From Anaerolineales bacterium (GTDB taxonomy: Bacteria; Chloroflexota; Anaerolineae; Anaerolineales; UBA11579), in contig OY760067.1 of the NCBI GenBank assembly GCA_963662985.1, forward strand, positions 1,502,100-1,566,099: a stretch of DNA of 64,000 nt, given 5' to 3'. This document shows, piece by piece, positions 16,799-47,762 of this stretch (its first letter is position 1; each line of letters opens with the position of its first letter). The notes under the pieces were generated by a model, which was not told the DNA's origin, did no database searches, and saw only the letters and a list, made by a program, of their open reading frames with translations. Position numbers and translations under genes: made by a program.

Positions 16799-18670
16799 TT
16801 ACCCTTTCACCGGCGGACATTTCCAAGCATCATCAGCCGTATTCATTCGGAGATCACTGAAGAATGGCAAAATCCCACAGGCGTAACATTGATTACGACA
16901 ATCATCTCGAGTTTCAAGGCGTTTACTCATTTGATAATCTTCTAACAAATAGTTTTTTCTAATTGCAGGGCTAATATGATCCCAAGCAAAGATTTCATCT
17001 TCACTTCGCACACGTTGGCTATAAAAAGCCATGTCCAATCCTGCTTCTTCAAAAGCTTTTTGCCAATTTTCAAAGTTGAAGAATTCGTTCCATGCGTCAA
17101 ATTTTGCACCATTTTTCCAAGCCAAATAAATTGCTTCTGAAACCCGTCGATCACCTCTAGATAAAGAAGCTTCCAGCATTGTTTCTTTGGGATCATTCCA
17201 ATTTAATTTCAAACCCCATCCACGCAATTCATCTCGCAAAATATCTTGTTTTTCTTTAATTTGCTCAGGAGTATTACAACCCACCCATTGGAACGTGGTC
17301 CATGGCTTAGGCACAAAAGTACTGACACCAACATTCACTTTTGCTTTTCTTCCAATTTGTTGATACCCAACTTCGCGAATTTTCATTGCCAGATCAACAA
17401 TACCTCTAACATCTTCTAATGTTTCTTCAGGGTGTCCAATCATAAAATAAAGTTTAATCGTATGCCAACCACGGCTAAAGATTTCCTTTGCTGTAGTCAA
17501 AATCATTTCTTCAGACATCGGTTTATTGATGATTTTTCGCATTCTTTCAGTGCCAGCTTCAGGAGCCAATGTGAAACCACTTCTTCGCGTAACACTCAAT
17601 GCATCCATCAAATCTACAGAAAATGATTCAATTCTCAATGAAGGCAAAGAAACAGAAAGGTTTTTACCTTCAAATTTTTCACCAATTTTATTCACAAGAT
17701 CTAAAACATAAGTGTAATCAGAGGAAGAAAGAGATAACAGCCCCACTTCTTCATACCCAGTTTTTTCAAGCCCTTCTTCAATAGTGGCTAGAATATCATC
17801 AACACTACGCTCTCGCACAGGTCGAGTAATAATTCCAGCATGGCAAAAACGACAGCCACGTGTACAACCACGCATGATTTCTACAGAAATGCGGTTATGG
17901 ACGGTATCAATATAAGGAACAATAAAATCTGACATTGGCTTTCCAAGTTCAGAAATAATTCTTTTTCGAACAGGCAAAGAAGCATTTTCGAATTTTTTAG
18001 TAACTTCTTTAATCGTTCCATCTGAATTATAGTGAACTTCGTACAGAGAAGGAACATAAACACCCCAAATTAATGAAAGATCTTCCAAAAGAACTTGGCG
18101 TGGTGCTTTCTTTTCTTTCCAAGCTTTATAACAATCAACGATATCATTGATTACCTCTTCACCTTCACCAATTACAAAAGCATCAATAAAAGGATGCATT
18201 GGTTCAGGATTCAATGTACTATGCCCACCTGCAATAATTAGAGGATGCTCTTCCGTTCGTTCTTTACTAAAAATAGGAATTTGAGCGAGATCCAACAAAT
18301 TCAAAGTATTGGTATAAAGAGTTTCATAAGGAACAGATAACCCGATAATATCAAAATCAGATAACGCTTTTTTAGATTCAAGAGAAAAAAGAGGGATAGA
18401 TTCTTCTCTTAAAATAGCTTCCATATCTTTCCAAGGAAGATAGGCTCGTTCTGCTAACGCATCATTTCTTTGATTAATGATATGGTATAGAATCGCTAGA
18501 CCATAATTTGACATACCTAAGTCATAAATATCAGGAAATGCAAAAGCTATTTTCACATCGATTGATTCCCAATTTTTCACTACTTGATTTAATTCTCCGC
18601 CTGTATATCTTCCTGGTTTTTGAACTAAAGGAAGAAAATTTTCAATTTTCGTTTGAATTGTGTTTTCCAT
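16799..18670 (-). CDS. TIGR03960-type B12-binding-domain radical SAM protein
   Basis: 623 aa. The radical-SAM cysteine motif is GCTRGCRFCHAG. It is the usual partner of the DUF2344 gene immediately downstream. Confidence 0.85.
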   Translation of the reverse strand: MENTIQTKIENFLPLVQKPGRYTGGELNQVVKNWESIDVKIAFAFPDIYDLGMSNYGLAILYHIINQRNDALAERAYLPWKDMEAILREESIPLFSLESKKALSDFDIIGLSVPYETLYTNTLNLLDLAQIPIFSKERTEEHPLIIAGGHSTLNPEPMHPFIDAFVIGEGEEVINDIVDCYKAWKEKKAPRQVLLEDLSLIWGVYVPSLYEVHYNSDGTIKEVTKKFENASLPVRKRIISELGKPMSDFIVPYIDTVHNRISVEIMRGCTRGCRFCHAGIITRPVRERSVDDILATIEEGLEKTGYEEVGLLSLSSSDYTYVLDLVNKIGEKFEGKNLSVSLPSLRIESFSVDLMDALSVTRRSGFTLAPEAGTERMRKIINKPMSEEMILTTAKEIFSRGWHTIKLYFMIGHPEETLEDVRGIVDLAMKIREVGYQQIGRKAKVNVGVSTFVPKPWTTFQWVGCNTPEQIKEKQDILRDELRGWGLKLNWNDPKETMLEASLSRGDRRVSEAIYLAWKNGAKFDAWNEFFNFENWQKAFEEAGLDMAFYSQRVRSEDEIFAWDHISPAIRKNYLLEDYQMSKRLETRDDCRNQCYACGILPFFSDLRMNTADDAWKCPPVKG

Positions 18671-18954: not shown

Positions 18955-21288
18955 TTACTCTTCTAGCACCTTAACATACTTATTCTTATCTTTGAACCAT
19001 TCAATTATGATATTTGTCCCTTCATATAATTCAGATTCAATATCAAAACTAGCATTGATCAATTTAGCTCTTTCATACATCCCAGCAATTCCAAAATGTC
19101 TTTTTTGGATTAATTGATTGATCGTTACAGCATCAATTGAAGAAAAGTCAATATCAAGGTCCATACCTTTTCCATCATCAGAGATTTCAATCAATATATA
19201 ATCTTCTTCCAAACGACCATATAATGTTATTTCATCTGCTTCAGAATGTGCTAAAGCATTATTGATACCTTGTTGGATCATTCGATAAAGATTCAATTTC
19301 AATTTCTCATCATATCGAAAATCATTTTTTGATTCATAAAAAATATTATTATGAACTTGAATCTTTTTTGTTTGATTGATTTGGAAACAATAGTCTTCGA
19401 TTGAATTATACAAAGGATATTCTTGCATTGGTGGGCGCAGACCTGAAATAGTGTTCCGAATTGAATTTGTAATTGTTTCAAAAAACTCACTCGTTTTCTC
19501 ATCCAATGTATATTGCTCTTCGACATGTTCTTTGAGCAAAGCAAATTCATTCAAGACTGTATCATGTAACTCTCTTAGGATATATGATTCTTGAGCATCT
19601 TCTCGATTAACGCGAATTTGATACATTGATTGAATATGTTGTGTTTGATAAATACTAGAAATCTTCATTGCAATTTGAATGGAGATAACATCAAGTGTTT
19701 CTATCAAATCATAACTAAAAACATCATCTGGAGAATGTTCGCCAATCAACCACCATCCATAAAATGAATCAGAAGTCTTAATAGGAAGGATTAATCGAAT
19801 CCACCCATATTTTGAATTTGATATAAATACATCTTCTAATGGTTGTTTAACTTGTAATTCAGTTAATTTTTCTCGACTAGGAATGAAATTTTCTTGATTA
19901 ATATTAATTTCTTGATAATCATCTTTGAAATCTGATATTAACACAATAATGGATTGATCAATTAAAAGGTCTGTTGTGAGATTTTTTTGAATTAATTGTT
20001 TTAATTCATCAATTGATTCTTGTTGTGATATTTGTTCTGAATATAAATTGATTACATTATCTATGGGGTAAATAGTACCTAAGAATTTTGCACTAACCCA
20101 TTTAACAAATGGAATGTAATTAAATGTAGAAGCTATTGAAATGAGTAATATCAAGAACAACAAAATGATAATCAAAATTGGACTGAATTCAAAAAATATT
20201 AAAAGAACGCTCAATGTTATCGCAATAAAAATTAAGAGGATAGAAAAATACATATAACTTGCAATTAATGGATTTTTTCTTAATTTATATTTTCCAACTT
20301 CTCTTTTGAATAAAATATTTAAGTAAGCTAAAGGAAGCATTGGCAAGAGCACAAGTGATAACCCAAAATCCGGGAAATTTTCAAAACTAAAAATAAGACT
20401 GATAAATAATTGTGGAATAAGAATGATTGACCATGTCAAAATGATAAATAGAATGTCATTGCGATTTTTCTTATTTTTGAAAAATTTATAAACTAATATT
20501 CCTAAAGATCCTAAAATAGCGATAAACAAACCAAAAGAATATAAAAATGAGCCAATCAATTTAAATATTTGCAAACCACTCAATACGATAAAAGGCAAAA
20601 ATAAGCCAATAATGATTCTTTTATCAATTTTGGGCTTATGAATACCTATCAATGAATGTAGTAATAAATAACATGGAATAGATAACCAAAAAGCGACGCG
20701 GAAAACGATTCCTGCAGAGTACATTCGATAAATAGCCATTCCACCTGTCGTTAACCAAATGGATGTTAAATAAGAAGTTGCGATTAAAACTTTCCATTCA
20801 ATGTTTCTAGGGCGGATTACAAAAAATGCAAATGTGCCAATTATCCAAAATAAGATTCCAACAAGATACATATTGGGAAATCTGTTTTTGAATTCTTCAA
20901 AAATAAAAGATTGATTTTTGATCTTAAAATTGAGAGTTTCGTCACCCCTTTGGATTTCAAAGTCTACTTGAGCACCTTTAGGTTGATTTGAAAATATTTC
21001 ACCATATGGATCATTTAAAAAATCTTCATATGCAATCGAATTAATGGATATGACTTGATCACCGATTTTAATTGGAATCTTATCAGAATAGATTTTAGTA
21101 ACAACGCCTTTATTTTCTAAGTGAAATCCATAATATGCTGAGAAGAATAACAAAGTTATAGAGTAAGTTAGAACAATTAAAAGGATGGCAAAAGGAAGTA
21201 ATAGATTAATTTTGTTTATTATTTTTTTCAATTTGGTCACCTGTTTTCTTTTAATTGTATCAAATTTTATAGAAAGGAGAATAATCAT
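18955..21288 (-). CDS. Polytopic sensor histidine kinase, HisKA_3/HATPase_c type (ComP-like); start uncertain
   Basis: The N-terminal ~430 aa contains many hydrophobic helices. The C-terminus has RELHDTVLNEF (H-box), NALAHSEADEI, DDGKGMD and HFGIAGMYERA. The track ORF reaches 21417 only by reading through a palindrome. I use Met44 (21288); GTG at 21240 is an alternative. Confidence 0.8.
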   Translation of the reverse strand: MIILLSIKFDTIKRKQVTKLKKIINKINLLLPFAILLIVLTYSITLLFFSAYYGFHLENKGVVTKIYSDKIPIKIGDQVISINSIAYEDFLNDPYGEIFSNQPKGAQVDFEIQRGDETLNFKIKNQSFIFEEFKNRFPNMYLVGILFWIIGTFAFFVIRPRNIEWKVLIATSYLTSIWLTTGGMAIYRMYSAGIVFRVAFWLSIPCYLLLHSLIGIHKPKIDKRIIIGLFLPFIVLSGLQIFKLIGSFLYSFGLFIAILGSLGILVYKFFKNKKNRNDILFIILTWSIILIPQLFISLIFSFENFPDFGLSLVLLPMLPLAYLNILFKREVGKYKLRKNPLIASYMYFSILLIFIAITLSVLLIFFEFSPILIIILLFLILLISIASTFNYIPFVKWVSAKFLGTIYPIDNVINLYSEQISQQESIDELKQLIQKNLTTDLLIDQSIIVLISDFKDDYQEININQENFIPSREKLTELQVKQPLEDVFISNSKYGWIRLILPIKTSDSFYGWWLIGEHSPDDVFSYDLIETLDVISIQIAMKISSIYQTQHIQSMYQIRVNREDAQESYILRELHDTVLNEFALLKEHVEEQYTLDEKTSEFFETITNSIRNTISGLRPPMQEYPLYNSIEDYCFQINQTKKIQVHNNIFYESKNDFRYDEKLKLNLYRMIQQGINNALAHSEADEITLYGRLEEDYILIEISDDGKGMDLDIDFSSIDAVTINQLIQKRHFGIAGMYERAKLINASFDIESELYEGTNIIIEWFKDKNKYVKVLEE

Positions 21289-21379
21289 GGAAACAATTCG
21301 TTTTATTGAAGAATTAAGCAATATTGAAGTCGAAGAAGCTCGCAATGAAACAGAAAACGGTTGGTTTGATTGGGCATAG
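21287..21379 (+). CDS. 30-codon ORF, candidate ComX-like pheromone precursor (METIRFIEELSNIEVEEARNETENGWFDWA)
   Basis: Strong SD AAAGGAG (21273-21279) 7 nt before the ATG. It has an acidic leader and a Trp-containing C-terminus. A stem-loop follows, and the polyprenyl-synthetase-fold gene lies 70 nt downstream. Confidence 0.45.
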   Translation: METIRFIEELSNIEVEEARNETENGWFDWA

Positions 21380-21396
21380 TCCTGATTAAAGCTACA

Positions 21397-21427
21397 AAAA
21401 GCTAGCTTGATTTTCAAGCTAGCTTTT
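21397..21427. promoter_or_regulatory. Perfect 14-bp inverted repeat (terminator/attenuator or operator)
   Basis: AAAAGCTAGCTTGA (21397-21410), loop ttt, TCAAGCTAGCTTTT (21414-21427). It lies between the small ORF and the ComQ-like gene. Confidence 0.6.
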
Positions 21428-21448
21428 CATACTTCGGAAAGGATAAAA

Positions 21449-22414
21449 ATGATAGAAAAAAAAGCGACTGAAATTGCATTAAATTATCTACTTCATGAAG
21501 ATTTTCCTCAATTAATTAAATGGTTTACGGTAAATCGCGTTGATATGATAAAAGCTGGTTGTCTTGCAGTGGGAGGTGAAATTTCAAATCTTTCTGAAGC
21601 AATTGCAGCAGTATGTTGTATTCATATGGGAATCAAAATAATTGACGATCTAATTGATGAAGATCAAAGAGGAATTCAAGCTGAAGTCGGTGTAGGTCAG
21701 GCCGCTAATGCAGCGTACATATATCAAGCAACGGGGATAAAAATTATTTTAGAATCAAATTATCCATATGATCAAAAAATGAAAGTAATTGATTATTTGA
21801 TTCATTTTTCAAAAATAACATCAATCGGTCAATATTATGATGCAACACAAATATCAACAATAAATAATTTCTATCATGCACTCGAATTAAAAAGTGGTCC
21901 TCTTTTTGGGGATTGTATGAGAATAGGCGCTGTCGTATCCAATGCGACAGAAGAAGAAACACAAACTCTTTATCAATTAGGAGTAATTTACGGATATCTC
22001 ATACAATTGAATGATGATTTATCAGATACATTTGCAACCCCAGCATCAAATGATTGGTTACCAAACAGAACAAACCTTCCTTTATTATATGCAAGTAATT
22101 TACCACATGAAAAACAAATACGATTTAATCAGATAAGAAACCAAGTATTTGATTCAGAAACAATGTTGGCAGAAGCGCAACAAATATTAATTTCTAGTGG
22201 TGCTTATTTTAAAGTAATTGAAGATATTATATGGCAATCATATTTATTTCATGATCTTTTAGAAAAATCTTCCTTAAACAATAAACAACCCCTTGAAGAG
22301 TTGTTAATTGAACTAATGGATCCTGTTATTAAAAAAATTAATAAGCTAAAGCTAACTTTTGACTATCAAGAATTAGAGAGTTGGGTTATCAATCGGCGGA
22401 GGCAAAATGCCTAA
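21449..22414 (+). CDS. Polyprenyl-synthetase-fold protein (ComQ-like)
   Basis: Both Asp-rich motifs are present: KIIDDLIDEDQRG and YLIQLNDDLSD. I cannot find the N-terminal GGKRxR motif typical of chain-elongating synthases. I chose the start at MIEKK, which has the SD GGAAAGGA. Confidence 0.8.
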   Translation: MIEKKATEIALNYLLHEDFPQLIKWFTVNRVDMIKAGCLAVGGEISNLSEAIAAVCCIHMGIKIIDDLIDEDQRGIQAEVGVGQAANAAYIYQATGIKIILESNYPYDQKMKVIDYLIHFSKITSIGQYYDATQISTINNFYHALELKSGPLFGDCMRIGAVVSNATEEETQTLYQLGVIYGYLIQLNDDLSDTFATPASNDWLPNRTNLPLLYASNLPHEKQIRFNQIRNQVFDSETMLAEAQQILISSGAYFKVIEDIIWQSYLFHDLLEKSSLNNKQPLEELLIELMDPVIKKINKLKLTFDYQELESWVINRRRQNA

Positions 22415-23062
22415 TTGCTGTGCTTTCGCCACAGCTGCTGAACGATTGCTAACGTCTAACCTTGCATATGCTCTTGAAAAAGTATTACGGACGGTTGAAG
22501 GAGCCATATTTAAAATTCCAGCAATCTCTTCCATTTTATATTCTGGGTGAGCAGCTGCCAAACTAAGCACATTCATCATTTTTCCAGAAAGATCAGGTGT
22601 TTTTTTTCGAACATTTTCTGGGTTAATTAATTCATATGTTTCTTGTGAGAAAAAGACACCACCAGTTGAAATAGCAGTCACAATATTATTTAAGTTGTGG
22701 ATATTCTCTGAATCATCCTTTACGATATATCCTGAAGCGCCAGCTTTCATTAAGCTCTTAATCATAGATGGCTGGCTATACATTGAGACAACTAAAATTA
22801 ACACTTTTGGAAAATCTCGTTTAATATCTTCAATATATTTAATGATAGGATATCTATTATTATTTGTTTTGCTAACAGGCACACCTATATCTAAAATCAA
22901 AACATTTATATCATTTGACTTTAACATAGGCATTAACTCTTCAGCATATTGTACAGAAGCAACTACTGATATATTATTGTCTTGTTCTAATCTATATCGA
23001 TACCCATCAGAAATTATTATATGGTCATCTAGAATGCCTACATTAATCATTTTTTTCATCAC
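22373..23062 (-). CDS. NarL/LuxR-family response regulator (ComA-like)
   Basis: 229 aa. REC domain (VGILDDH..., NVLILDIGVP) plus a C-terminal LuxR HTH (KMEEIAGILNMAPSTVRNTFSRAYARLDV). Confidence 0.9.
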   Translation of the reverse strand: MMKKMINVGILDDHIIISDGYRYRLEQDNNISVVASVQYAEELMPMLKSNDINVLILDIGVPVSKTNNNRYPIIKYIEDIKRDFPKVLILVVSMYSQPSMIKSLMKAGASGYIVKDDSENIHNLNNIVTAISTGGVFFSQETYELINPENVRKKTPDLSGKMMNVLSLAAAHPEYKMEEIAGILNMAPSTVRNTFSRAYARLDVSNRSAAVAKAQQLGILPPPIDNPTL

Positions 23063-23278
23063 CTAATCCCCAAAATAATTTATATATATAATGAATATAC
23101 AATAACATTGAAAGAGATTTCAATCAATATATACTAATCAAACAAAGTACAAATGTTTAATTGAAGATTAACGAATGTTTGAATAATTAAAAGCTGCAAA
23201 TTGACACTTTGATAGTGAAATAATTTAGTGTATAATGTGGAAGCGGTTCCAGATAAATAAAAATATTAAGGATAATGA

Positions 23279-25441
23279 ATGAGTAAACAATCTTTTAAAA
23301 TAGAAATTCCAAATCATTTTGATTTACCCAAACAATTAAAACGTTTAGGTGAACTTGCTTATAATCTTTGGTGGACATGGGAAAAAGACTGCCAAAGAAT
23401 GTATCGAGATATAGATTTTGATTTATGGGAAAAAACATATCATAATCCGGTGAAATTCTTAAGACAAGTTGAACGAAGTAGAATTAATGAAATGCAAAAC
23501 GATTTGCATTTTATGAAGAAATATAATGATGTGATTGAAGAATTTGATAAATATGTCCAATCAGAGAATACTTGGTTTGACACAACTTATCCAAAAAAGA
23601 AAAAAGAATTAGTTGCTTATCTTTCTTCCGAATTTGGGATGCATGAAACTCTCCCAATCTATGCAGGAGGGTTAGGTATCTTATCAGGGGATCATATCAA
23701 AGAAGCAAGTGATCTTGGCATTCCGATGGTTGGAGTGGGATTCTTATACACGAACGGTTATTTCTCACAAAAAATCACTGAAGATGGTTGGCAAGAAGCT
23801 CGTTATATGAATTTAAAATTTGAAGAACTTCCTGTTTCTCCTGTTATAGATGAAAATGGAGCACCACTAACTGTAAAAGTAGATCTTCCCGGTAGAGAAA
23901 TTTTAGTCCGAGTTTGGAATATTCAAGTTGGACGTGTTCCTCTTTATTTATTGGATAGCAATGTGGATGGTAACTCAGATGCAGATCGACAATTAACTGC
24001 TCGATTATATAGTTCTGATTTAGACCTTAAGATCACACAAGAAGTCATTCTTGGCATTGGAGGAGTTCGAACACTTCGAAAATTAGGTTATGAACCCACT
24101 GCATGGCATATGAATGAAGGTCATTCAGCTTTTAGTTCCCTAGAAAGAGCGCGTGAATTGGTAGTAAAGGGAAAGACTTTTGATGAAGCTGCTGATATTA
24201 TTCGTAAAAATACAGTGTTTACAACACATACACCAGTTCCTGCAGGAAATGAACAATTCCCACTATGGTTAATGGACAAATATTTTTCCCACCTTTGGAC
24301 ACAACTAGGTTTAGATAGAGATCAATTTATGGACATTGCTCGCATGCAGCAACCTTGGGGTGAGACCTTCTCAATGCCTGTCTTAGCGATTCGTATGTCA
24401 GCATTTAGAAACGGTGTTTCTGAATTACATGGACAAGTAGCTCGAAAAATGTGGCAATTCTTGTTTGAAGATACCAAAGTTGAAGACGTTCCGATATCTT
24501 ATGTAACTAACGGAATTCACACAGGGACTTGGATGGCTCGTCGTTTACGAAATTTATTCTCTGAATACTTTGACCCGAATTGGAGAGAGAATATCGATGA
24601 CCCACAAGTTTGGGAAAAAATCAAAGATGTGCCAGATGAAGAACTCTGGGAAGTTCGTCGTCACTTAAAGAGAAAATTGATGATGTATCTTCGTGATCGT
24701 TCTCGAGCACAATGGTTACATGATGGGATTCACCCCGTTCAAGTTGTAGCAGGTGGTGCTTTATTAGATCCATATGCATTAACAATTGGGTTTGCTCGTA
24801 GATTTGCAACATACAAACGTGCGAATTTAATTTTCCGTGATGTTGACCGAATTTTACACTTAATCAACGATCATAACCGACCAGTACAAATTATATTTGC
24901 TGGTAAGGCTCATCCAGCAGATGAACCTGGAAAATTATTAATTCAAGAGATTTATCGAATTGTTAAAAAAGCAGAATGTGGTGGTCGTCTAGTATTTGTG
25001 GAAGATTATGACATGAATATTGCCAGATATTTAGTACAAGGTGTTGATGTTTGGCTAAACACTCCCCGCCGCCCAATGGAAGCCTCAGGAACCTCAGGTG
25101 AAAAAGCAGCCTTAAATGGTGTCCTAAACTTTTCAGTGCTTGATGGTTGGTGGCGAGAAGGCTATAATGGCAAAAATGGTTGGAGCATAGGATCAGAGAA
25201 AGAATATGCTGATACAAATGCACAAGATGAAGCTGATGCTAACAGTCTATATGAAACCCTTGAAAATGAAATCATTCCCATGTATTATGAAAACAGAACC
25301 CCAGATGGAGTTCCGTTGGATTGGATGGAATATATGAAAGAAACTATTCGAACTTGTGGCCCCAATTTCTCCATGAGAAGAATGGTTAAAGAATATACAA
25401 CAGAACTTTATATCCCTTCGATTGAAAATGGAAAAAAATAA
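23279..25441 (+). CDS. glgP: Alpha-glucan phosphorylase (GT35, short maltodextrin/glycogen phosphorylase type)
   Basis: 720 aa. YLSSEFGMHETLPIYAGGLGILSGDHIKEASDLG and the PLP-site region RRPMEASGTSGEKAALNG. Confidence 0.9.
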   Translation: MSKQSFKIEIPNHFDLPKQLKRLGELAYNLWWTWEKDCQRMYRDIDFDLWEKTYHNPVKFLRQVERSRINEMQNDLHFMKKYNDVIEEFDKYVQSENTWFDTTYPKKKKELVAYLSSEFGMHETLPIYAGGLGILSGDHIKEASDLGIPMVGVGFLYTNGYFSQKITEDGWQEARYMNLKFEELPVSPVIDENGAPLTVKVDLPGREILVRVWNIQVGRVPLYLLDSNVDGNSDADRQLTARLYSSDLDLKITQEVILGIGGVRTLRKLGYEPTAWHMNEGHSAFSSLERARELVVKGKTFDEAADIIRKNTVFTTHTPVPAGNEQFPLWLMDKYFSHLWTQLGLDRDQFMDIARMQQPWGETFSMPVLAIRMSAFRNGVSELHGQVARKMWQFLFEDTKVEDVPISYVTNGIHTGTWMARRLRNLFSEYFDPNWRENIDDPQVWEKIKDVPDEELWEVRRHLKRKLMMYLRDRSRAQWLHDGIHPVQVVAGGALLDPYALTIGFARRFATYKRANLIFRDVDRILHLINDHNRPVQIIFAGKAHPADEPGKLLIQEIYRIVKKAECGGRLVFVEDYDMNIARYLVQGVDVWLNTPRRPMEASGTSGEKAALNGVLNFSVLDGWWREGYNGKNGWSIGSEKEYADTNAQDEADANSLYETLENEIIPMYYENRTPDGVPLDWMEYMKETIRTCGPNFSMRRMVKEYTTELYIPSIENGKK

Positions 25442-25458
25442 ATAATCAATAGGATTTT

Positions 25459-25989
25459 ATGACAATGACATTTACAAAAGAAGCCTGGCTAGCAGCTGGG
25501 CTTATTTTTTCACTAAGACTATTAAATACAGCAGTTGCAACATTTCGTATGATGATGACAGCTCGTGGAAGAAGCAACTTAAGTGTAGTATTATCTTTCT
25601 TTGAAGCTATTCTTTATGTTTTCACCCTAACATTTGTTGTTTCAGACCTAAATAATTGGCTTAGTATAACAGCCTATGCTTTAGGATATGCCTTAGGAAA
25701 TTTCACAGGGCAATGGATTGATCGAAAACTAGCAATCGGTCATATGCTATTGCAAGTTATTACATCTACCCATAGTATTTCACTCACAAAAGCATTACGT
25801 GATGCAGGTTTTGCAGTAACAGAAATTGATGCTAGAGGAAAAGATGGTGCAGTAACTGTTTTAAAGGTTGGAGTTATGCGGAAAAATCAAGAAAAAGTGA
25901 GAGAAATAGTCACTTCAATAGATCCTTCTGCCTTTGTGACTGCAGAATCAATGACACCAATGTCCAGAGGATTTTGGGGAAATCCTTAA
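25459..25989 (+). CDS. UPF0316 family membrane protein (DUF2179 C-terminal domain)
   Basis: 176 aa. Three N-terminal TM helices followed by a small soluble domain (AVTEIDARGKDGAVTVLKV). Confidence 0.7.
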   Translation: MTMTFTKEAWLAAGLIFSLRLLNTAVATFRMMMTARGRSNLSVVLSFFEAILYVFTLTFVVSDLNNWLSITAYALGYALGNFTGQWIDRKLAIGHMLLQVITSTHSISLTKALRDAGFAVTEIDARGKDGAVTVLKVGVMRKNQEKVREIVTSIDPSAFVTAESMTPMSRGFWGNP

Positions 25990-47673: not shown

Positions 47674-47762
47674 GGAGAGGTGCCAGAGTGGTTTAATGGG
47701 GCGGTCTCGAAAATCGTTGTAGTGCGCTAGCGCTACCGTGGGTTCGAATCCCACCCTCTCCG
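47674..47762 (+). tRNA. tRNA-Ser, anticodon CGA
   Basis: I folded it by hand. The acceptor stem is GGAGAGG/CCTCTCC. The D-stem is 3 bp with a GG loop. The anticodon loop is CTCGAAA. The long variable arm has a 7-bp stem. The T-arm is GTGGG-TTCGAAT-CCCAC. The discriminator is G, and no CCA is encoded. Confidence 0.88.

Follow-up and report, generated by a model that had tools for sequence, protein, structure and literature searches.

A ComQXPA-like cassette in Anaerolineae carrying a candidate precursor gene for a prenylated peptide signal

Introduction

Tryptophan (Trp)-prenylated peptide pheromones were long thought limited to Bacillus and other Firmicutes. A 2014 census found ComQXPA-like loci in Firmicutes only, the four genes lying next to one another on a single strand and ordered Q-X-P-A (Dogsa et al. 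2014, PMC4008528). Here we analyse a locus of related content from an Anaerolineales bacterium (Chloroflexota), contained in a stretch of 64,000 nucleotides of contig OY760067.1 that we call the window. It comprises a gene of 30 codons, X (21287-21379), followed by a gene for an enzyme of the isoprenyl diphosphate synthase (IPPS) fold, Q-like, and the pair is flanked by genes for a P-like sensor histidine kinase and an A-like LuxR-type response regulator. We favour, as the probable reading, that X is the precursor gene of a ribosomally made, post-translationally lipidated peptide signal, ComX/PalX-like and Trp-prenylated. The locus is most likely a ComQXPA-like cassette of a kind that occurs widely in filamentous Chloroflexota (Anaerolineae) and has gone undescribed there.

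Several described systems bear on this reading. ComQ needs a pseudo-form of its second aspartate-rich motif (SARM), NDxxx or GDxxx, and DDxxD is considered unsuitable (Okada review, PMC5331326); the substitutions N186D in ComQ and N215D in StheQ abolish 90-98% of activity, the figure for StheQ N215D being 98% (PMC5331326; bioRxiv 10.64898/2026.08.29.745113). StheQ-StheX of Sphaerobacter thermophilus, a ComQ-like peptide prenyltransferase and adjacent peptide in Chloroflexota, is the only Chloroflexi precedent (August 2026 preprint), and the penultimate Trp of StheX is farnesylated in vitro (bioRxiv 10.64898/2026.08.29.745113). The PalP-PalX-PalQ system of Paenibacillus alvei, so listed, consists of a kinase, a precursor and a Trp prenyltransferase resembling isoprenyl diphosphate synthases of the trans type (trans-IDS) (Miyata et al. 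2023/24, PMC10853753). In trans-IDS-like peptide prenyltransferases of the ChrPC and PalQ clusters, a Gln and the first SARM Asp form the Trp-recognition network (2026 review, PMC13290415). Finally, Ord1, an indole prenyltransferase that is all-alpha-helical (PDB 9V4G/9V4J), needs Q216/D219 for indole prenylation (PMC12510300). Text searches of the literature returned no paper on the Anaerolineae Q-like/X family reported here.

A conserved 30-codon gene divergent from a sensor kinase

The region between the kinase and Q-like genes holds the following features.

21287..21379, plus strand: X, gene of a 30-aa precursor peptide, translation METIRFIEELSNIEVEEARNETENGWFDWA
21273..21279, plus strand: Shine-Dalgarno (SD) sequence AAAGGAG of X, 7 nt 5′ of the ATG
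21254..21264, plus strand: 11-nt motif ATTGTATCAAA, situated upstream of X and unchanged in five related loci with diverged flanks
18955..21240, minus strand: P-like sensor histidine kinase, 761 aa, start GTG 21240, with HATPase_c and a NarQ/UhpB/NarX-like transmitter

The X peptide consists of an acidic leader, METIRFIEELSNIEVEEARNETEN, and the core GWFDWA, in which W26 and W29 are invariant. The initial annotation had pointed to this open reading frame (ORF) with its GWFDWA ending, to the AAAGGAG 7 nt upstream and to its appearance in the ORF list only as a 64-aa version (21185-21379), and had proposed it as a ComX-like pheromone precursor gene; all of these details are present in the sequence, and as far as computation shows the proposal is supported, since the frame is conserved and a Q-like enzyme adjoins. 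The ComX ending GIFWEQ, with which it had compared the peptide, is found in the literature (LSKKCKGIFWEQ, PMC5331326). The strongest evidence, the genomic context, was absent from that annotation: a ComQ/PalQ-like enzyme of the IPPS fold as the next gene, and a kinase and a LuxR-type regulator flanking the pair.

Conservation of the frame, the Trp residues and the SD had been proposed as a check. In all six distinct related loci (Q-like identity 65-97%) X retains its start, stop and SD and a length of exactly 30 codons, with both Trp kept, and AAAGGAG was preserved in 5/5 aligned close loci. The ratio of nonsynonymous to synonymous change (pN/pS) was 0.16-0.75 across the close group; judged by these ratios, the reading frame is under purifying selection. 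The 30-aa ORF is also predicted by gene callers in the relatives. Within the window, short ORFs ending in W-x-x-W make up 9 of the 745 ORFs of at least 22 aa. The window peptide gave no family match in Pfam or NCBIfam at E <= 0.01.

The start of X bears on that of the kinase. On the minus strand an ORF of 820 aa opens at TTG 21417, and its Met44 codon (21288-21286) overlaps the ATG of X head to head, so that, as had been stated, one of the two starts had to be adjusted. The antisense extension of the kinase carries an in-frame stop in one relative (L002) and lies in a different frame in another (L005), and gene callers give the kinases of relatives as 759-761 aa. Because the extension is broken in relatives, we place the kinase start at GTG 21240 and not at Met44 or TTG 21417, which leaves X and the kinase 46 nt apart.

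These data also decide whether X could be a chance open frame within the N-terminal coding region or 5′ untranslated region of the kinase. With a GC content of 37% the window has many short ORFs, and the long antisense frame (TTG 21417, Met44 21288) runs through X without a stop. In relatives, however, that frame is stopped (L002) or shifted (L005), whereas the 30-codon frame is always intact; pN/pS is below 1, and W-x-x-W peptides occur family-wide. The comparative data effectively refute this explanation, to which we give hardly any credence. By the same comparisons X is a real, conserved gene, beyond chance.

Upstream of X, a -10-like TATCAA (21258-21263) lies inside ATTGTATCAAA, about 24 nt 5′ of the ATG, and a possible -35 element, TTGGTC (21233-21238), overlaps the kinase start codon (GTG 21240-21238). 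Given this overlap, the X promoter and translation start of the kinase may interfere. A consensus promoter scan detected no plus-strand promoter. Its conservation makes ATTGTATCAAA a candidate promoter or operator of X, and it could equally be the binding site of the regulator.

In one sequencing run, X3, positions 20500-23300 of the window were covered by short contigs with depths of 37.5, 15.8, 18.8 and 72.1 and breaks at ~20857/21031, 21773 and 22594/22711, where other runs gave one long contig. Strain variation, or a library of RNA-like character, could account for the fragmentation.

The cassette across Chloroflexota genomes

A word-index search with Q-like returned only 12 homologues among 5.8 billion proteins, and every contig carrying one has a small ORF on the same strand just upstream of Q. 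The length of the encoded peptide is 30 aa in the close group (Q identity 65-97%); in a second group, of 24-37% identity, it is 52-56 aa, with 66 aa called in one contig variant. Its endings are GWFDWA, GWFDWL, GWYDWA, GWLTWF, GWSGWRG, WWSGWRA, FWSDWRVA and LWGWSWR.

A Q-like profile scan of one genome per GTDB species yielded 39 loci, nearly all from Chloroflexota (Anaerolineales, Anaerolineaceae, Ardenticatenaceae, Caldilineaceae and Promineifilaceae), the best match being an Anaerolineales metagenome-assembled genome (MAG) with 79% identity. Automatic and manual inspection identified an intact upstream peptide ORF in 37 of them. A full hidden Markov model search gave 227 Q-like clusters (50% identity) at E <= 1e-30. 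As a control, the canonical IPPS P0012, a distant match, had no small ORF and no kinase nearby.

When 44 non-redundant peptides were aligned, the only invariant columns were the two Trp that correspond to W26 and W29 of the window peptide; a few loci carry W-x-W in place of W-x-x-W. A peptide profile search, led by a 55-aa family member, added 88 further clusters, all 88 with W-x-x-W and most commonly with the core LAWD(V)WxEAK. The named records among these clusters are all ‘hypothetical protein’, and the few that name an organism are Anaerolineales MAGs. Two leader types occur, ‘..TIE(E/T)F..LL....PL..ALR.L...PE..’ and ‘M.MQAFY....’. Other family peptides have 43-68 aa against 30 aa in the window, and because the 30-aa peptide lines up with the longer leaders in their C-terminal half, the window clade has a shortened leader.

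Two architectures were distinguished. In type A, that of the window, the order is kinase (-), X and Q (+), LuxR regulator (-); in type B, X, Q and a large hybrid kinase all lie on one strand. Of the 35 genes lying closest to Q on the downstream side, 17 carry HATPase_c (16 with HisKA), 17 a receiver and 11 GerE; of the 31 lying closest on the upstream side, 13 carry HATPase_c. Across the family X, the hairpin that follows it, Q and the sensor module of the kinase (both described below) travel together.

Some loci stand apart. Two contain decaying copies: at L031:5564-5890 a frameshift, or an error of assembly, puts the leader and the core (GSWSGWSM) out of frame with each other, and at L046:5965-6501 Q-like is cut to 141 aa and no peptide ORF was found. 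A contig labelled ‘Patescibacteria group bacterium’ (L042) is probably mis-binned, since its cassette is nearly identical to that of a Chloroflexia MAG (L039). Another, labelled Rhodospirillales (L048), has a divergent peptide (…EPWPNWGRDA), which mis-binning or horizontal transfer could explain.

A Q-like enzyme that lacks the chain-elongation motif

The gene following X encodes the candidate modifying enzyme.

21449..22414, plus strand: Q-like, 321-aa enzyme with a trans-isoprenyl-diphosphate-synthase fold (PF00348, 2.2e-17)

Its start lies 69 nt beyond the stop of X. Q-like has, as its first aspartate-rich motif (FARM), D66-D67-x-x-D70, and further the stretch Q186-L-N-D189-D190-L-S-D193 and the pair D202-W203; D66-D67-x-x-D70 and D202-W203 are invariant. 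Motif counts were taken over 138 full-length members. The FARM DDxxD is present in 134/138, Q-x-x-DDxxD in 131 and the family-specific D-W in 135. Chain-elongating trans-IPPS combine FARM and SARM with GKRxR, the motif I that binds isopentenyl diphosphate (IPP). Q-like is without GKRxR, as are all other members (0/138), and the outgroup P0012 has it as GKRIRP; Q-like thus falls outside the chain-elongating definition. Whether RRG after the FARM has an equivalent is ambiguous, as Q-R74-G75 is aligned to it by HMMER but by neither MAFFT nor hhalign.

An AlphaFold2 (AF2) model of Q-like has the all-alpha IPPS fold with a predicted local distance difference test (pLDDT) score of 92. Searched with Foldseek, it matched geranylgeranyl diphosphate (GGPP) and polyprenyl synthases at template modelling (TM) scores of 0.7-0.77, with Ord1 only at rank 29. 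By sequence, Ord1 was the second best PDB match (E 8.9e-7). By its SARM, which is DDxxD and not NDxxx or GDxxx, Q-like is not of the ComQ type. It fits the SARM-retaining trans-IDS-like peptide prenyltransferases, because PalQ, Ord1 and the enzymes of the ChrPC/PalQ review share the Gln/Asp pattern; motif logic and genomic context are the basis for this assignment, by which Q-like is a candidate peptide Trp prenyltransferase.

The same motifs could be read as those of a heteromeric isoprenyl diphosphate synthase, or another terpenoid enzyme, with the peptide as a partner or regulator that takes no part in catalysis. In favour of this, the two Asp-rich motifs are of canonical form, chain-elongating synthases give the best matches by fold and by sequence, and a small second subunit is established in the heptaprenyl diphosphate synthase of B. 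subtilis (PDB 9kp1). Yet GKRxR is absent in 138/138 members, known small subunits are far longer than 30-60 aa, and neither a conserved C-terminal pair of Trp on a variable tail nor the tight linkage to sensor kinases has a rationale in chain elongation. We regard such a synthase as improbable.

A hairpin between X and Q

The strong stem-loop that the initial annotation had placed after the ORF proved to be a perfect hairpin.

21397..21427, no strand assigned: palindromic 14-bp hairpin AAAAGCTAGCTTGA / TCAAGCTAGCTTTT with loop TTT, between X and Q

It begins 17 nt past the X stop. Region 21375-21450 folds at -26.1 kcal/mol (z = -6.0; 0/200 shuffles as good), and an A-run before and a T-run after the hairpin make it terminator-like on both strands, although a simple terminator scan did not call it. 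A strong hairpin separates X and Q in ~35/41 family loci, with unrelated sequences and, in many, a following T-run; structure kept in this way without conservation of sequence argues that the hairpin is functional. Precursor mRNA in excess over enzyme mRNA is common for genes of peptides that are made by the ribosome and modified after translation (RiPPs), and the hairpin is probably a partial terminator that gives an excess of X transcript over Q mRNA. Being palindromic with an A-run and a T-run, it could also stop minus-strand transcription coming from the regulator gene.

Two Trp codons near a stop, a terminator-like hairpin 17 nt on and an enzyme gene next would also suit a Trp-codon attenuator leader of the trpL kind, or an upstream ORF steering read-through into Q, whose peptide is functionless. 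Against this, no antiterminator alternative was found, the sole competitor of the hairpin being a 7-nt pairing with its 3′ arm; leader residues far from the Trp codons are conserved as amino acids in two leader families; the X-to-Q distance ranges from 8 to 482 nt across family loci; and Q is outside the Trp pathway, with the Trp spaced W-x-x-W and not in tandem. We rejected the attenuator idea for its lack of an antiterminator and its conserved leader, and rate it very improbable.

The kinase sensor module and the regulator

The kinase begins with a transmembrane helix (TM1) followed by an extracytoplasmic loop.

20869..21144, minus strand: PDZ-like extracytoplasmic loop of the kinase, residues ~33-124, between TM1 and TM2

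About nine more TM helices, the H-box RELHD and HATPase_c (9e-8) complete the layout. Compared with the PDB, a profile of 22 such loops matched PDZ domains only, best that of GRIP (8.3e-7) and also DegP, DegS and the PDZ domains of site-2 proteases. Pfam PDZ_2 (PF13180) was matched by 11 of the 22 loops, at best with 4.7e-6. An AF2 model of the sensor has low confidence as a whole (pLDDT 48), with a beta-rich, more confident loop (57-83).

Kinases near Q-like genes share an N-terminal layout of TM1, a loop of ~100 aa and 7-9 TM helices up to about residue 400. A word-index search with the kinase sensor domain gave three matches only. The first 420 residues of the window kinase match every kinase tested, at 669 bits to L014, 36-176 bits outside the own clade and at least 68 bits where the N-terminus is complete; the E-values come from a tiny database, and hydrophobic bias may somewhat inflate these scores. 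The sensor module with its PDZ-like loop is common to NarL-class kinases and to hybrid kinases with HisKA and receiver domains (L007-L052). Its membrane part is covered by no Pfam model, and this modular sensor domain apparently has no name. The typical ligand of a PDZ domain is a free peptide C-terminus. For this reason the extracytoplasmic PDZ together with the membrane bundle would be an attractive site for a W-x-x-W-x-COOH lipopeptide, and the kinase is a candidate receptor of the modified peptide.

The fourth component is encoded convergently to Q.

22373..23062, minus strand: A-like response regulator, receiver plus LuxR/GerE helix-turn-helix (PF00072, 5e-12)

It gave full-length matches to NarL-class regulators. 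The 3′ ends of the regulator and Q-like genes overlap by 42 nt (22373-22414), as they do in L001, L002, L003 and L005. With regulator and kinase both on the minus strand, antisense to Q and X, antisense transcription through X-Q is conceivable. The locus thus reads P(-), X(+), Q(+), A(-), the four functional parts of a ComQXPA system.

Two further gene groups flank the cassette.

16799-18670, minus strand: B12-binding-type radical SAM gene (Radical_SAM_N2), with DUF2344 next in relatives
23279-25989, plus strand: DUF3417 alpha-glucan phosphorylase plus a DUF5698/DUF2179 gene, on the other side

This synteny is retained in all close relatives and not in distant family loci, and the flanking genes are therefore probably outside the system. 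The sole Rfam match in the window is a tRNA (47674-47762, plus strand, 54 bits); no known RNA or riboswitch was found near the cassette.

Discussion

Our favoured reading, a lipidated peptide signal, can be laid out as a sequence of proposed steps. The strong SD would drive translation of X, and the hairpin, as a partial terminator, probably makes X mRNA far more abundant than that of Q. Q-like most likely binds the acidic helical leader and prenylates (C10-C20) W26 and/or W29 of GWFDWA. By analogy with ComQ, PalQ and StheQ, attachment would be at indole C3 with formation of a pyrroloindoline, by an enzyme that has lost the IPP-binding GKRxR and has retained the FARM and Gln-x-x-Asp-Asp-x-x-Asp. 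The leader would be removed and the lipopeptide then exported by factors outside the cassette, as for ComX. Outside the cell, the divergently encoded polytopic kinase would sense the peptide, its PDZ-like loop being suited to a free C-terminus, and would phosphorylate the LuxR-type regulator encoded convergently to Q. In this scheme we infer the chemistry, the identity of the modified Trp, processing and export, ligand-receptor pairing, and quorum sensing with its density dependence.

Several results weigh against this reading. The SARM of Q-like is the canonical DDxxD that the ComQ literature calls unsuitable for Trp prenylation, and a fold search cannot separate a prenyltransferase from a chain-elongating synthase. 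ComX (PF05952) and NHLP were absent among the weak, scattered matches of the 44 family peptides at E <= 1. In the kinase, Pfam HisKA_3 (PF07730) was not detected even at E <= 10, the region being covered by the H-box RELHD and by NarQ/UhpB/NarX/LiaS matches, and the window's own loop matches PDZ_2 with E 1.1e-3, under the curated cut-off. The regulator's GerE domain (PF00196; 2.2e-4, 21.2 bits) is likewise under its cut-off of 23.5 bits. The cassette has no gene for an exporter or a leader peptidase, and the sequencing runs retrieved for the locus contain only assembled DNA-like contigs, which in four runs gave flat or fragmented assembler depth and no transcript ends.

The explanation nearest to ours is that X and Q make a prenylated RiPP product other than a self-signal, such as an antimicrobial, a surfactant or a membrane-anchored peptide, and that the adjacent two-component system only controls how it is made or responds to another cue. 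What speaks for X as a substrate of Q serves this explanation equally, and PalX and StheX likewise have no established role. On the other hand, no immunity, transporter or additional tailoring genes are conserved near the cassette, and the polytopic PDZ-bearing sensor module always accompanies X-Q, fused to two transmitter types. A ligand-receptor pair would be expected to leave such a pattern. We consider a non-signal product unlikely, though it is the rival to be taken most seriously.

A broader proposal is more tentative than the signal-precursor reading itself: that a family of W-x-x-W lipopeptide pheromones extends across several Chloroflexota orders (at least 227 clusters), with distinct SARM-retaining enzymes, perhaps with both Trp modified, and with a PDZ sensor gripping the C-terminus. 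We put it forward as a possibility on which we would not yet rely.

The locus points to a candidate circuit that is complete, with a precursor, an enzyme to modify it, a receptor kinase and a regulator, and that is conserved in Anaerolineales, Ardenticatenaceae, Caldilineaceae and Promineifilaceae. The hosts are filamentous bacteria, abundant in wastewater sludge, digesters and sediments and for the most part uncultured, in which, to our knowledge, cell-cell signalling is undocumented. If the proposal is true, no complete circuit of peptide quorum sensing would have been described before this one for filamentous Anaerolineae, and a PDZ grip on the peptide C-terminus would add a new receptor logic to quorum sensing by peptides. 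A new branch of SARM-retaining peptide prenyltransferases could be of use in lipidation biocatalysis, and the circuit may offer a handle on filament behaviour in treatment plants. The annotation is corrected as well, with respect to a missed 30-aa gene and an over-extended kinase start.

Comparison with known systems

Four functional parts are common to the locus and ComQXPA: an enzyme with PF00348, a small precursor that bears Trp, a NarL-class kinase with a polytopic membrane part, and a regulator combining receiver and LuxR domains. In ComQXPA loci Q precedes X and all four genes lie on one strand, whereas here X precedes Q and the genes, P(-), X(+), Q(+), A(-), occupy two. By the signature of ComQ (IPR033965), Q-like has PF00348 and the FARM DDxxD, but DDxxD in place of the pseudo-SARM NDxxx/GDxxx. 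Both ComX and the window peptide have a Trp 2-5 residues from the C-terminus, and neither locus includes a protease or an exporter. The functional description of ComX, a Trp in the last 5-10 residues of a peptide encoded beside the enzyme gene (Dogsa et al. 2014), applies to X, whose Trp are residues 26 and 29 of 30; the ComX model does not, since ComX has 52-73 aa and X has 30 aa, no PF05952 match and two invariant Trp. ComP-type kinases combine a multi-TM N-terminus with HisKA_3 (PF07730) and HATPase_c (PF02518); in the window kinase ~10 TM helices and HATPase_c were found and PF07730 was not detected, and its PDZ-like loop is a difference from ComP. As in ComA, the regulator combines PF00072 and PF00196, the latter just below its cut-off. 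Since the peptides match neither ComX nor NHLP and the enzyme has no pseudo-SARM, X is not a member of the ComX family and would be a functional analogue or a new branch.

StheX, like X, has two Trp near the C-terminus and comes from the phylum Chloroflexota, and W29 of X is likewise penultimate. In contrast to the window cassette, stheX lies downstream of stheQ and encodes 69 aa with adjacent WW. StheQ has NDxxD with an essential N215, its host belongs to a different class, and the preprint text mentions no histidine kinase. Ord1 has the same IPPS fold as Q-like, and its Q216/D219 aligns with Q186/D189; unlike Q-like as proposed here, it acts on free indole or tryptophan, has the pseudo-SARM DDxxA and has no adjacent precursor or kinase.

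PalPXQ differs in host (Firmicutes as against Anaerolineae), and the window cassette includes a LuxR-type regulator. In PalX the leader is long and of the NHLP type and the one Trp is strictly C-terminal, whereas the window family has short leaders (24-60 aa), no NHLP match and two invariant Trp, usually with at least one residue following; the window peptide ends in W-A, and only some family peptides end in W. The target Trp of PalX, like the presumed target in X, sits at the C-terminal end. In both systems a kinase gene accompanies a precursor that is listed before an enzyme keeping Gln-x-x-Asp...Asp, although the PalPXQ text gives no strands, and the spacing of Q197/D200/D204 in PalQ is that of Q186/D189/D193 in Q-like. 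Comparing the enzymes by described motif and not by sequence, we conclude that PalPXQ is the system closest to the Anaerolineae cassette in organisation and in catalytic motif.

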